This document shows, piece after piece, positions 21,123-26,700 of a stretch of DNA of 64,000 nucleotides (positions within the stretch are counted from its first letter, which is position 1; each line of letters begins with the position of its first letter). The DNA comes from Flaccisagitta enflata (Eukaryota), in contig OZ231126.1 of NCBI GenBank assembly GCA_965153355.1, positions 29,202,001 to 29,266,000 of the forward strand, read 5' to 3'. The notes below the pieces were generated by a model. The model made no database searches and was not told where the DNA came from. It saw nothing but the letters and a program-made list of their open reading frames with translations. The position numbers and the translations under genes were made by a program.

Positions 21123-22081
21123 GTGCGGATACATGAAATTATAGCGCATCCAAAATAGCAGCCTCCAAAATAGCAGGCTCGGTAATAGCACGGCCCATTA
21201 TAGCGAAACCGATATTATAGCAGCTCTATTATAGCACACCGAGATTATAGCAGCCCTATTTTTACATATAAAGACAAGCAAAGGTCAAAGACTGATCGGT
21301 TAAAGGTTGTTGGTTGGCTTTGATCATTGTTGTAGTATTTCTAAATATAAAGACAAGTAACAGCTGGGCTCATGTTAGTTTACATGTCAAAAAGATGTGA
21401 CACTGCTGAGAAATGTTAATACGTCATGAACTCATTTAGAAACTAGGATGAGTACAGAATACGCTTTTAACCTCAAATGGTTCTCACGCTGCGCTGAAAA
21501 GTAACGAGTACACAGACATGCGTGTTCATGCTGATGATGCAAGATCAATTTTGAGGATACTCAAAGGAATGTTCATGCTGATGATCGAAAGCACCTATGT
21601 TTCATGACGCTTCATGACTGAGAGAAAAGTAACGAGTACAGAGACTTATGCGTGTTCATGCTGATGATGCAAGACTCATGAGAGAGAGAGAGAGAGAGAG
21701 AGAGAGAGAGAGAGAGAGAGAGAGAGAGAGAGAGAGAGAGAGAGAGAGAGAGAGAGAGAGAGAGAGAGAGAGAGAGAGAGAGAGAGCTGACGTTTGAAAA
21801 GATCTTTAATGTCCCTCAATGATCTTGTTCTTTTTCCCGGACATGTACAATCTAGATAGCTGGAAACTTACAACAGGAGAGAGCTAATGCATGTATGTAC
21901 TCACAAAGATACCGGACATCCTCTTACAGAGATGATTCAAAGATTTATTTCATCACAGAAACAGTGGATGAGAGAGAGAGAGAGAGAGAGAGAGAGAGAG
22001 AGAGAGAGAGAGAGAGAGAGAGAGAGAGAGAGAGAGAGAGAGAGAGAGAGAGAGAGAGAAAGAGAGAGAGAGAGAGAGAGA

Positions 22082-22709
22082 TCATTCAAGCCATGGATTT
22101 TCTTTGACAATTTCTTTTCTTCGATCGCCATAATCGTACAATAGCTCAGTGCCATTGGCAATTCTTCGTAGAGCAATAAAAACTATTCTGGGCTCTCCAT
22201 CAACGACCACAAACCATCTTCAGATTTGCTTCCTTTCTTGAATGATTTATCAGTCGCCCTTTTGTGTCATTCTCTTCCGTTGCATCAATGCATAGGCGGC
22301 GCGAATCGAATTTGAAAAACAAGAGGAAGCTTCCCTTTTTTTCGTCTGTGTAACGTTTTTCCCTGATGAGGAAAAAAAAAACTTCCTTCAAGCTTCTACG
22401 TAATCTTATGCAAACATGTTCTTTTCATAACAACCTTTAAAAGAATAAAGAAGGATTGAAACAAAAGAACAAATCGTACCGGCGCTCTCCTTCCTTATGG
22501 CGCTCTCCTTCCTTATGCGTTATCAAATCCCCTTCGTAAACGGCCACATATTCGCCCTCCTCAAAATCACGTTTGACAACGATTCCACGTCCTCTTTCAT
22601 CGGTGAAATTCACAGACAAGTCATCACTGCATTTGCCTTCAACTTTCTCCATGAAAAGTTTCTCCTTTTCTGCCTTGGAAGGATTTTGAATACGGGAAGA
22701 GCGACGCAT
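22082..22709 (-). CDS. SET domain, SETD8/KMT5A/PR-Set7-like histone H4K20 methyltransferase (one intron 22363-22479; one +1 frameshift)
   Basis: GRG motif, YxGDL, CIDAT, GRLINHS, ELLYDYGD and terminal PWL all match the SET8 subfamily pattern. Confidence 0.8.
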
Positions 22710-23752
22710 CCTGTCCCTATGGATTTGGAAGGCATCCCGTCGTTGACATCATCCGTTTCCGCGCCCAGAACCCCGTTGATTATGTTTCGTGGCCGATCTC
22801 GACATCCCCTCGCTTTTTCGGTGATAGTGACGTTGGCACGACGCTGGAGCACTTCCTAGGTAATAAAAGAAAGACAGACAGAAAGACAGACAGTGACTTT
22901 TATGGACCATGCATCCAAACTAATTTTGAATAAGAAGATATTCGCTATAATGTAACATGCTAAGGAAGCAAGAGAGGAGAGAGAGAGAGAGAGAGAGAGA
23001 GAGAGAGAGAGAGAGAGAGAGAGAGAGAGAGAGAGAGAGAGAGAGAGAGAGAGAGAGAGAGAGAGAATAAACTTTGTACCTTCATTGTCATTGAACAGGA
23101 ATGAGGGGTGAAAGAATCCAGAAGAACATCTTCCACTCCACAGGGATATGCTCGGGACGTGCGGATTTTCCCCGTACAATTCGGGTCAACACAGTACCAC
23201 GTAAGCGGGGCATCAGGATTGACGTTATTTCGTTTCATTCTGATGAAAAAAAGAACACAGCTTGCAAATCAAATCTGGTAGAAGAAGACGGCTACAACAT
23301 ACAACAATGTTTAAGCAACAAAGGTGATACTACAACAACAACAACAACAACAACAACAACAACAACAACAACAACAACGAAAACAAAAAACAACGAAAAC
23401 AAACAACAAAAACAAAAACAACAAACCAAATACAACAAAACAACAAAACAAAACAAATACAACAAAACAACAAAACAACAAAACAACAAAAACAACAAAA
23501 ACAACAACAACAACAACAACAACAACAAAAAACAACGAAAACAAAAAACAACGAAAACAAACAACAACGAAAACAAACAACAAAAACAAAAACAACAAAC
23601 CTGTGTAGCTGCGCCTTGAAGAAAAGAAGCGGGCGGCCGTTTGTGCTTGGCATGTAAAGTGGCTGATCATAGTGGAAACATTCTTTTGCCGGAACATTCC
23701 CTACAAAATTCGGGATTGGATTTTGCGGATCCTTACGACCCTTTCCAGGCAT
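22082..23752 (-). pseudogene. FLYWCH zinc finger / MULE transposase N-terminus joined to a SETD8(KMT5A/PR-Set7)-like SET domain; two frameshifts
   Basis: Exons 23752-23601, 23239-23080, 22855-22480, 22362-22082 with GT-AG introns and matching phases. FLYWCH-like: STNGRPLLFFKAQLHR...TWYCVDPNCTGKIRT...PHSC. SET8-like: RRSSR..SKAE...ERGRGIVVKRDFEEGEYVAVYEGDLI...LCIDATEENDTKGRLINHS...DGEPRIVFIALRRIANGTELLYDYGDRRKEIVKENPWLE*. Frameshifts near 22710-22715 and 22211-22213; 18-bp in-frame duplication (HKEGER x2). Confidence 0.85.
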
Positions 23753-26700
23753 GATGCAAGAATATTGAGTGGCAGTTTAAAATGTATTGCAGTAATTGAT
23801 CGCATTGAACGTTGAAATCACTTTCCTAGGTTGAAAATAAATGTAAATTTAAAACAAATGTTGCATATTGTTTAATATGATATGTGAATTGAAGAAACGT
23901 ATGGAGTTAGTGTTTATCTTTGTCGAGAATGTAGGAGGCAAAACATTTATGTGATCCACATTGTAACAATTGATGATGGCAATGATTCAAAGGAAATGTT
24001 TGATTCTCTTTAAGTCCACGTTTGTAATAGCGTTCATATTCAGTCCAACTCGAGGACAATCAATCTACTCTCGCAGCTGTTTGCCTCCTACATACATACC
24101 ATGGTAATTGAGCGAACTCACCTGCGTCAGTATCGTCTTTCCGTCACAACCCATTCACTCACCTTCGATCACTTGAGCATCAGTGTCGTCTTTCTCCGGC
24201 AGTTTTTGTGTCACTATCATCTTTGCCGTCGGTTATCGTCGGTTGCTTTGCATCAACTTTAAAGTCTCTCTCTCTCTCTCTCTCTCTCTCTCTCTCTGCA
24301 GGTTTGGAATCAGTTTCATCTATTGTGACTATCCGTATGCTTTAATGGAAGTCAACTTCATCTTTATATCTGTCTGTCTCTCTTTGTTATCTATCTATGT
24401 CATTCGATTCCTAACTAAAACTAAAGATTTGTTCACAATGTACATTCTCTTTATCTATCTTTCTATCAATCATTTGATCAGTCGTTTCATCTTTATATCT
24501 GCCTGTCTCTCTTTCTATCTGTCTTATTCTGTCATTCAATCTGTTACTCAAACCAAAGATTCGCATTTGTGTAAATATCAATATCTATCAATCAATCTAT
24601 CAATATCCATATGACTGACTGTCTGTCTGTCTGTGTCGGTCTGTCTGTCTGTCTGTCTGTCTGTCTCTCTCTCTCTTTGATGAGTCACTCGAGACTTTTT
24701 CTCTCGACGAGATTATAGCGACATCATCATCATCATCATCATCATCATCATCATCATCAGTACATACACAGTACGTATGCCTATCCTTTTTTGACATTAC
24801 TGTTATATCAATGATTTCCATCTGGACAATAGTATATATGCAATAGTGTATAGTACCCGTCATCACTTCTTACTATGATGATATAAGCTCTTGTCTTTAG
24901 CATGAACCTTCAGCCTTTACTTGTCTTTACTTGTTAAAATAGGGCTGCTATAATCTCGGTGTGCTATAATAGAGCTGCTATAATATCGGTTTCGCTATAA
25001 TGTGCCGTGCTATTTCCGAGCCTGCTATTTTAGAGGCTGCTATTTTGGAAGCGCTATAATTTCCGGCACCCCCGAGTGCTGTGTGGAAACAAAGAATTAA
25101 GTATGAGACTTGGTCGGCGAGCGTTACAATTCATTCCTTATTTTGGTAGTGATCAACTTTGGAATTTCACTGTGACCAATCGAATTAGAGTTAAGACTTG
25201 AAATTTTAGAGGCATGTGCAGAATTTCAACCTCTTTCACATCATATAGATAAATTCAGCGTTAAGCATATTACTATGCTGTAACATAGTAAGAATCATAG
25301 TGTGACATAAGTGTGACAGCTACAACATGGAGCCCCTCTGAATTGTAACGCTTCAAGGAAATGTTGATTTCTTACCAATGGAATGGAAAAAATCATTGAA
25401 AATTGGAGGGAATGTCCTTTAACTAGTTGTCAATGCAATGGAAAAAGAAAAATTGCTTAATGTTTGACTGATGATAGGCTAACAAAAAAAATTGTCAACT
25501 TACCTCCTTTTCAGCAAAAAATGACTGAAAAATAAAGGGGGGGGAGAGCTATGTTTCAAAGCTTTTTTTTGTCATCTTACAGTTGAAATATTGAGTTCAT
25601 ACTTTCCACACATATCAATGGATTGATAGTGATTGCTTACAAGCTTTGGGATGACCCTGCTTGACATTTTTTGATTGGTTAAACTTGCATTTTGCCTACA
25701 GGGACAGAATCGGGACAGGCCAAAATAGGCCCTTCGACCCCTGTTTTGGACCCCATAGGAGCAGTCGGTGTGGCAAAAATTGGTTTGGTATGGCGCACCA
25801 GATAGTTAGGTATGTCACTCAACCTTTGTGACCTTATGCAATTCAACAGCAAAAGCAATGCCACTTCTACCATGGCGGAGAGTCGGGGTTTCTCGGGCGC
25901 CCCCGGATGCTCAGAATCAACCATAATGTGTTTTAATGTTCTAACTAACTTTTATTCCAGGCCTGTTTACATTATCATAACATGCAGTACATGCAGTTTG
26001 CGCTTGGGTGACTCACATAGCAAATGTTTGGTATTTATTTAACTCTACTTTTCAATATTAAATAATTCATTAAAAAATTTCATGAATTTTTATTTCATAA
26101 AAATTTCTTATTTTTTCAAAAATTTTTTTGTAAAATCCTATTTGTATAATACTGTAAGAATGATTGATTCATATTCAAATATTCATTTACTGATTCATTT
26201 CTTTATCTGCTTTTTGATCAAAATATTTTCTATAAGACATATTCAACATTAAAACAAAAACTATTTATTTTCATATTTTTTTAGTCGCGTGCACGCGACT
26301 CTACAATCTTCTTTGTTTGTTTGTCAGTTGGTCGGTTGCTCATTTTTTTCTTTATTTCTATGATTTTTCTTTTGACCTCACCGCTCCTGCCCAAATGGTC
26401 AAGTGATATCAAATAAGGCCCTGGCCTAACCCCGCTGGACTAAAATAGCTGTGTATCTGGCTTAGTTTTATAATACATGTCTGGCGGATTTTCCCAGGTT
26501 TTGCTTTGTGAAGCACCCAAATTTCACGCTCCGTATTTGAGCTTCATTGAAGCGTGACAATAAATCTAACTTAAAACGTCAGAAGGCAATCAATTCAGTG
26601 TCAGACTAAAAGACAGATATACTGACATTTGGCTAAAGAGAGCGCTAAACCTTGAACTGGTGGACTGAGTTGCAAAGCAAGCAGAGTAGGCTTGCGTTCA

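Follow-up and report, generated by a model that had tools for sequence, protein, structure and literature searches.

A short SET8-like gene between long terminal inverted repeats in Flaccisagitta enflata

Introduction

How does a gene for a histone-modifying enzyme come to lie between the inverted repeats of a transposon-like element, and is it joined there to a domain that could bind the element's own ends? This question is raised by a 3,944-bp element (positions 21127-25070) in a 64,000-nucleotide stretch of the Flaccisagitta enflata genome (assembly GCA_965153355.1, contig OZ231126.1, positions 29,202,001 to 29,266,000), which we will term the window. A first-pass annotation proposed a Mutator-like transposon with a four-exon gene, in which a FLYWCH-type zinc finger and the helical segment that follows it in Mutator transposases run directly into a SET domain like that of the H4K20 methyltransferase KMT5A (also known as SETD8 or PR-Set7). 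We reach a different view of this gene. We hold with moderate confidence that the element is a decayed, non-autonomous member of a small family with terminal inverted repeats (TIRs) and that it captured a short SET8 gene, which lies beside a separate zinc-finger piece. No zinc-finger/SET fusion protein is encoded in this copy.

Few transposons carry chromatin- or DNA-modifying enzymes; examples are VANDAL elements with their anti-silencing proteins, fungal elements with TET/JBP, and oomycete MuDR and HarbingerS elements with SET. Such cargo shows ways in which mobile DNA can act upon the marks by which it is silenced, and a cargo of the SET8 type would add the H4K20 mark to the chromatin functions that transposons carry.

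Ends of the element and its insertion site

The span of the element is set by a 9-bp duplication, CCCGAGTGC, just outside both ends (left copy at 21118-21126, right copy at 25071-25079, identical). Within it, the left TIR occupies 21127-21284 on the plus strand and the right TIR 24914-25070 on the minus strand, both placed by the match of their arms and by alignment and the left one also by the positions of its sub-repeats. The arms at 21135-21284 and 24914-25063 are 95% complementary over 150 nt, and in a global alignment the likeness reaches the outermost letters, 21127 and 25070, where it is weaker. Each arm holds eight sub-repeats centered on ATAGC at a spacing of 14-17 nt. The TIRs of ~150 bp and the target site duplication (TSD) of 8-9 bp that the first-pass annotation reported are both confirmed.

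The insertion site gives good evidence that the element arrived as a single mobile unit. It interrupts the 9-bp duplication, GTGCTGTGT, of a neighboring element that resembles a miniature inverted-repeat transposable element (MITE; 20600-21126 with 25080-25084), and if the SET-carrying element and one CCCGAGTGC are excised in silico, the GTGCTGTGT of the neighbor is rejoined. Because the split duplication is restored in this way, we conclude that the element inserted as a unit; two different elements with 9-bp duplications are nested at this site. (The neighbor, at 20609-21122, is unrelated: its arms are ~112-125 nt long, are 91% alike, and end in TCGGGTGTGTC.) It is very improbable, in our judgment, that there is no mobile unit here and that an ordinary gene lies by chance between two MITE-like repeat insertions, or that the locus is an assembly chimera. 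Such an accident would fit a small family that has no second full copy in the window, but it would not account for the identical duplication at the outer ends or for the restored TSD of the neighbor. A blastn search of the element against the 64-kb window finds no second copy of the TIRs, the SET gene, or the rest of the interior, and the matches outside the element are a 45-nt low-complexity match and microsatellites, nothing else.

To which superfamily would such a unit belong? Mutator-like elements (MULEs) have TSDs of 8-11 bp according to PMC6446971, and this element has 9 bp on both sides. It also has the long inverted repeats (tens to hundreds of bp) that are typical of MULEs. A Pfam scan of its open reading frames (ORFs) found no MULE DDE transposase; none of 10 further ORFs of the element has any Pfam domain, and SET is the sole domain on all the ORFs scanned. 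From the ends and the duplication we infer that the Mutator type fits best, which is short of establishing membership in the superfamily.

Inside the TIRs there are direct repeats (given here on the plus strand). On the left, at 21496-21678, the units 21496-21547 and 21624-21678 are 93% alike over 55 nt; on the right, at 24357-24561, the units 24357-24429 and 24486-24561 are 80% alike.

A minus-strand unit with two reading frames

Between the ends lies the minus-strand unit of four exons that the first-pass annotation had described; its three introns all have GT-AG borders and keep the frame. Exon 1 (23752-23601) begins with an ATG at 23752-23750 (MPGKGRKDPQ...). Exon 2 (23239-23080) has a zinc-finger-like pattern, W-x-C-x4-C-x24-H-x-C. 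Exon 3 (22855-22480) contains the continuation of the zinc-finger ORF, followed by the first part of the SET domain. Exon 4 (22362-22082) encodes the C-terminal half of SET, with RLINHS and ELLYDYGDR; it is coding to 22085 and its stop codon is at 22084-22082. A microsatellite or homopolymer run is found inside every intron: intron 1 (23600-23240, 361 nt) has an (ACA)n-type microsatellite and intron 2 (23079-22856, 224 nt) has (GA)n, while intron 3 (22479-22363) is 117 nt long. An AATAAA on the same strand (21944-21949), ~135 nt past the SET stop, might be a poly(A) signal.

The unit does not encode one protein. Exons 1 and 2 and the first 133 nt of exon 3 (exon 3a, 22855-22723, EVLQRRANVTITEKARG...) give 148 open codons in frame 0, and downstream of the junction at 22722/22723 the SET ORF is in frame 2. 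The SET frame is −1 relative to the zinc-finger ORF at this point. The zinc-finger ORF goes on, out of register with SET, to a stop codon at 22612-22610 (185 codons in total). The SET frame has a stop codon upstream, at 22751-22749, and its own start at ATG 22709 (22709-22480 is the SET part of exon 3, MRRSSR...). There is a second frame break in exon 4, at ~22213. Hence the proposal that the finger runs directly into SET fails: the two are in different frames and SET has an ATG of its own. We also considered programmed −1 frameshifting over the overlap and judged it unlikely, as inspection by eye of 22748-22613 revealed no canonical slippery heptamer (X XXY YYZ).

The SET8-like domain and its relatives

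All three ORF pieces of the 3' half of the unit match PDB chains of human KMT5A/SETD8 (E = 8.8e-07, 1.6e-06, and 3.7e-10), and these chains are the best or nearly the best match for every piece. (For the middle piece, a SET protein from Cryptosporidium, 4ldg, scores slightly above KMT5A.) The Pfam SET model also matches all three pieces, one of them above the curated cut-off. Together, the pieces span the N-flank and the whole SET domain and align to residues ~187-350 of human KMT5A isoform 2; the cofactor and catalytic motifs of KMT5A are aligned, and GRG, RLINHS, and ELLYDYGDR are kept. The SET8-like label of the first-pass annotation is therefore well founded. Judging from these alignments, an intact copy would most likely be a stand-alone lysine methyltransferase that mono-methylates H4K20.

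The closest relatives are short genes of a peculiar form. A HMMER search of a set of representative proteins (1.84 billion) returned 58 matches at E ≤ 0.001, and the best of these are short ORFs on environmental ENA contigs of 501-1,621 bp (82% identity for P0001 and 44-53% for P0003-P0007). All of these begin with M or MM immediately before RRS(S/A)R, and their homology stops just past (H/Q)KEA-x-(R/K)R, which is where intron 3 starts in the window; the ORFs of 11 relatives end just beyond this point in the protein. Eleven of the 12 aligned members of the group (the window copy included) start at a Met that is at most five residues before RRS; in the remaining one, P0019, the open frame extends farther upstream than this Met. 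(A search of Atlas with the SET piece returned generic SET fragments and nothing else, and a protein database search with it against longer proteins found no relative.)

A motif like a PIP box, (L/I)T(D/E)(F/Y)(F/Y)P right before RRS, occurs in 13 of the 56 hits inspected, and these 13 are all long, typical KMT5A-like proteins. (We left out P0002 and P0050, which are too long, and P0008, a repetitive non-SET protein.) The motif is absent from the SET frame of the window and from its 13 nearest neighbors in the tree. In this tree (57 rows and 76 columns, with limited resolution and with bootstrap values that are not fully settled), the window copy and 13 short-start rows are grouped with support of 99/95, and all 13 PIP-box rows fall on the other side. 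Two further rows labelled short-start, P0009 and P0015, fell outside the supported short group.

Because of its short start, the missing PIP box, and its separate group in the tree, the cargo is not a typical KMT5A. It has ~170 codons versus ~350 for KMT5A and lacks the N-terminal region. It also has an intron after EA-x-RR, a point that two PIP-box fragments (P0022 and P0057) read through in their ORFs. By these comparisons, the short SET8-like genes form a family of their own, distinct and diverged, and the SET cargo is one of them. The first-pass annotation had named the case in which this SET is single-copy and is the only KMT5A of its host. We reject it, as there are several copies and derivatives in sequencing contigs (see below), no PIP box or N-terminal region, and a separate tree group. 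In KMT5A, the PIP box and the N-terminal region are involved in degradation, and cells normally destroy SET8 every S phase, so a SET8 without its degron would be an interesting natural variant of the enzyme.

One of the relatives probably comes from close by. A repeat that translates as ...FW(T/A)AA(L/P)KGRCPVGHR... is found in the window at 14938-15000, 47135-47185, and 47476-47520, and it is also found in the intron read-through of P0003. As this interspersed repeat is shared, the contig of P0003 is probably from the same genome as the window or from a related one, and that genome would then have at least two diverged members of the short SET8 group. Another hit, P0002, is a predicted protein of 4,152 residues from another source, with five near-identical SET8-like domains (five Pfam SET matches, 33% identity to the SET of the window) between repeated blocks; it resembles a gene model that spans several copies of another repeated SET8-like-gene unit.

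Other copies in sequencing runs

To characterize other copies, we used contigs from three runs, placed on 22081-23329 at 90% likeness or more (exon 1, the TIRs, and the flanks are outside that stretch). X1 and X3 are two DNA runs with the same organism label from one study, and X2 is a marine metagenome run from another study. In all three, contigs over SET leave the window sequence at 22722 (two contigs in X1, three in X3, and three in X2), and the diverging contigs all continue into TTATGA(A/T)TGTTGTTG.... This point of departure is the exact boundary of the two reading frames.

The junction of the window is also seen in X1, where a contig (record 5) spans it with 0 differences over 204 nt. 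Over the SET body, the X1 contigs have a depth of 223-229, which falls to 64 past the junction, and the three forms of the junction in X1 (64, 88.5, and 80.8) sum to about the depth of the SET body; in X2, the depth is 14-19 on SET and 5 on exon 2. These depths are not copy numbers. At this likeness no contig from X1 or X3 covers exon 2, and such holes in coverage prove nothing about absence. Because the depth falls beyond 22722, it appears that most SET copies are without the N-terminus of the window at the 90% level, and we read the depths only as a few SET copies of which most lack it.

Some copies are rearranged. In X3, one contig passes from 22556 into the right TIR at its inner edge (27 of 30 letters match 24921-24947), another joins 22398 to sequence that is weakly like the left subterminal repeat (16 of 30), and a joint omits 22258-22663. 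In X2, a contig (691 nt) connects 22423 with exon 1 (25 of 30 letters match 23618-23646). These copies look like the internally deleted derivatives of cut-and-paste families, and some could be alleles of the same locus. The first of them bears on the first-pass suggestion that other TIR pairs might enclose a SET sequence: it does link a SET exon to the same right TIR, on a single short contig. It also argues against a gene caught by chance between two repeats, as an internally deleted form is still joined to the TIR, and the X1 contig that supports the internal junction argues against a chimera.

The second frame break is absent from these copies. At 22212-22214, all of the contig depth in all three runs has two extra letters, and the version of the window at ~22213 is in no contig, which is a point in favor of an assembly fault at this locus. 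With the two letters restored, the coding parts of exons 3 and 4 come to 230 + 280 = 510 nt, or 170 codons in one frame. Of the 15 listed single-letter differences in the SET coding sequence, 9 are synonymous; among the six others, two are beside the indel and one is a stop codon in one X3 contig. Without the two indel-side differences, 9 of 13 are synonymous, as compared to a synonymous-site share of 0.21 (P = 2.5e-4, binomial test; P = 1.2e-3 for 9 of 15; the test is rough and ignores transition bias). This excess implies that the SET copies diverged under protein constraint.

An 18-bp tandem duplication in the SET exon (~22481-22516, which gives HKEGER twice) is present in X3 contigs and absent from the X2 contig. 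In an RNA run, X21, of which only ~6% was sampled, 0 reads were placed on 22081-23329. A search with the pattern of TIR sub-repeats gave 45 matches in metagenome loci, of which 0 were related by blastn. A pattern search of viral contigs gave 17 matches, none of which was confirmed.

The zinc-finger-like part

What is the upstream ORF? The pattern in exon 2, which begins WYC, has a single match when the window is translated in six frames, and 3 of 100 shuffles of the window contained one or more matches to the loose zinc-finger pattern. A tryptophan two residues ahead of the first cysteine is characteristic of FLYWCH fingers (Babu et al., 2006, PMC1702500). Exon 2 shares this tryptophan with the FLYWCH and WRKY-GCM1 fingers at the N-terminus of MULE transposases, and it likewise has a cysteine dyad followed ~24 residues on by a His-x-Cys dyad. 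It differs in that its final ligand is a cysteine and not a histidine. The C-x4-C spacing is nearer to WRKY than to the FLYWCH consensus.

The database searches do not add to this. When the trimmed exons 1, 2, and 3a were scanned separately against Pfam, no relevant match appeared at E ≤ 10. The FLYWCH model itself (PF04500) had no match at E ≤ 10 on these single exons, between which intron 1 would split the domain. The PDB had no match at E ≤ 10 for the same exons. Two word-index protein searches, against longer proteins and against proteins of near length, found no relatives of exon 2, and the best score in Atlas was 0.86, with no family. A single-sequence AlphaFold2 model of exon 2 had a predicted local distance difference test (pLDDT) score of 48.7 and is too poor for use. 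The name of WRKY/FLYWCH-type finger is thus suggested by the cysteine/histidine pattern alone. The FLYWCH label of the first-pass annotation, whose domain was scanned in halves, gained no match; the helical segment of MULE transposases found no search support; and the similarity to FLYWCH or MULE models that was expected in exons 1 to 3 did not appear in the exon-by-exon scans.

A possibility closer to the first-pass annotation is that intact members of the family encode a TIR-binding finger of the WRKY/FLYWCH type fused to SET8, that this protein methylates H4K20 at the element's own ends, and that the window copy is a frameshifted member. This would explain why 148 codons are open over two frame-keeping GT-AG introns on the same strand directly upstream of SET, and why the pattern, which is unlikely by chance, has the tryptophan of FLYWCH fingers (PMC1702500). 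Also, exon 1 occurs with SET exon 4 in the X2 contig, which comes from another copy or allele, and the sequence before the ATG of other copies is open in the SET frame across the few letters visible. We nevertheless find it improbable. The sole junction that has been seen is out of frame, and the contig agrees; the other SET copies depart exactly there, and the depth of exon 3a and exon 2 is about a third of that of SET or less. The Met near RRS in 11 of the 12 aligned members suggests that the short proteins begin there, no exon matches FLYWCH or MULE, and a slippery heptamer that could join the frames was not seen by eye. For the copy in the window, the FLYWCH-SET fusion falls at 22722/22723, where the frames part and the other copies diverge.

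A broader version is also improbable, in our estimation: that the whole short, PIP-less SET8-like group is transposon-borne in marine eukaryotes, and that master copies pair SET8 with a WRKY/FLYWCH-type finger that binds the ends, by splicing or as a two-protein module. Such elements would write H4K20 methylation on their own chromatin, free of cell-cycle degradation.

Origin of the SET cargo

As the SET gene and the zinc-finger ORF meet in different frames at the very point where other copies diverge, the simplest explanation is that two pieces of different origin were brought together. In the account that we propose, the transposase would be supplied from elsewhere; it would recognize the ~15-bp ATAGC sub-repeats within the 150-bp ends and cut with a stagger of 9 bp. 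The cargo would be a complete, intron-containing short SET8-like gene of ~170 codons, with its own ATG and without a PIP box or a regulatory N-terminus. Its probable source is a lineage-specific family of short SET8 genes, from which it would have been captured as DNA; the captured piece would have its 5' edge at 22722, which is 13 nt ahead of the ATG. The zinc-finger ORF in the three exons upstream would be a separate piece, left over from a gene of the element itself or captured as another fragment. It abuts the SET gene in the wrong frame, in the manner of Pack-MULEs, and the chimeric unit would be dead in this copy. MULEs are described as acquiring host gene fragments (PMC6446971).

A second explanation, which we consider rather unlikely, is that the transposon family has long carried the short SET8 gene as an accessory that acts on its own, as HarbingerS and Phytophthora MuDR elements carry their SET genes, and that the window holds a broken member. 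With the same low probability, and as part of this explanation, the accessory SET8 would alter the chromatin of the element or of its surroundings, for instance so that silencing is escaped or tuned. The presence of SET within TIR-bounded DNA in at least two forms (the window and the X3 contig that joins 22556 to the TIR) is expected if so, and a transposon family is what the several deletion derivatives within a single individual (X3) resemble. The mostly synonymous differences among SET copies, the placement of SET in a distinct and diverged PIP-less clade known only from environmental contigs, and the published precedents for SET in DNA transposons would also be accounted for. Yet no copy with a transposase was found, the depths suggest only a few copies, no RNA reads were seen (from ~6% of one RNA run), and one recent capture from a host gene family would fit these data too.

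Several observations weigh against capture by a Mutator-type element, which we still prefer. First, no locus outside a transposon was seen that could be the parent of the short SET8 gene, and capture is inferred. The copies of the (TTG)n type may be transposon copies too. Microsatellites interrupt the contigs, and those of the other copies end at (TTG)n. A further intron and an in-frame zinc-finger exon could lie upstream in these copies, which the depths make less likely. Second, purifying selection on SET would be expected of an accessory gene in a transposon no less than of a host gene. Third, because the element has no transposase, TSD length and long TIRs are the only guides to Mutator, and Merlin elements also give TSDs of 8-9 bp. 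Fourth, X1 is possibly the source sample of the assembly, in which case its agreement at the junction is not independent; the two-letter deficit at ~22213 may be a rare variant or an assembly error; and the evidence on copies consists of single short contigs in three runs of two studies.

Comparison with known systems

Transposon-borne SET genes as such are already in print, in MuDR, HarbingerS, Helitron, and Plavaka elements. In oomycetes, a table in PMC6446971 lists "SET for 14 members" of the group MULE-Phytophthora_1, and PMC12730594 reports that HarbingerS families and MuDR families of Phytophthora took up genes for SET histone methyltransferases (citing Kojima and Jurka, 2014, Repbase Reports). 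A preprint on the red alga Bostrychia mentions SET captured by Helitrons, an accessory SET gene in HarbingerS, and another in Plavaka (PAG2, in Bostrychia). These carriers share with the window a SET methyltransferase ORF inside a DNA transposon, and the Phytophthora MuDR case is also of the long-TIR type with 9-bp TSDs that is suggested here. As far as their brief descriptions go (the subtype of SET is not visible in them), the published carriers differ in being autonomous or in having SET beside a transposase. The window copy has no transposase and lacks the pairing of a SET ORF with a transposase ORF that defines the accessory-gene type. We found no paper that joins KMT5A, SETD8, or PR-Set7 with Mutator or MULE in a literature search that did not extend to Repbase Reports and supplements, where SET8-type cargo may be described.

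The structure also resembles that of Pack-MULEs. As in those elements, there are long TIRs, a 9-bp TSD, no transposase, and an interior of gene pieces with introns; two of these pieces meet in a chimeric transcription unit with a broken frame. The element is non-autonomous and has a gene as cargo, and the break at 22722 is common to the three runs. The difference is that the cargo is a whole small gene and not a fragment. Pack-MULEs have been described mainly from plants.

The first-pass annotation had called the element the mirror image of SETMAR (Metnase). Both link a SET gene with a DNA transposon. In SETMAR, a host SET gene is in frame with a mariner transposase domain, while the window copy has neither a transposase domain nor a fusion in one frame (frame 0 versus frame 2, and the X1 contig agrees), and the analogy does not carry over.

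The locus itself is a broken, transposase-less copy with an out-of-frame junction from a small family. We see its main value as a pointer to the element family and to the distinct clade of short, PIP-less SET8-like genes, which is the most interesting by-product of this analysis.

Other features of the window

Microsatellites and short tandem repeats are extremely dense across the window (for example at 30400-32100, 41700-42350, and 51870-52520) and include (GA)n, (ACA)n, (GTCT)n, and (ATTC)n-like runs as well as poly-purine tracts of over 1 kb. The sole other clear gene that we noticed is an ankyrin-repeat gene on the plus strand (~55615-63151), with Pfam Ank matches on three ORF pieces; it has several exons, and its introns are filled with microsatellites.

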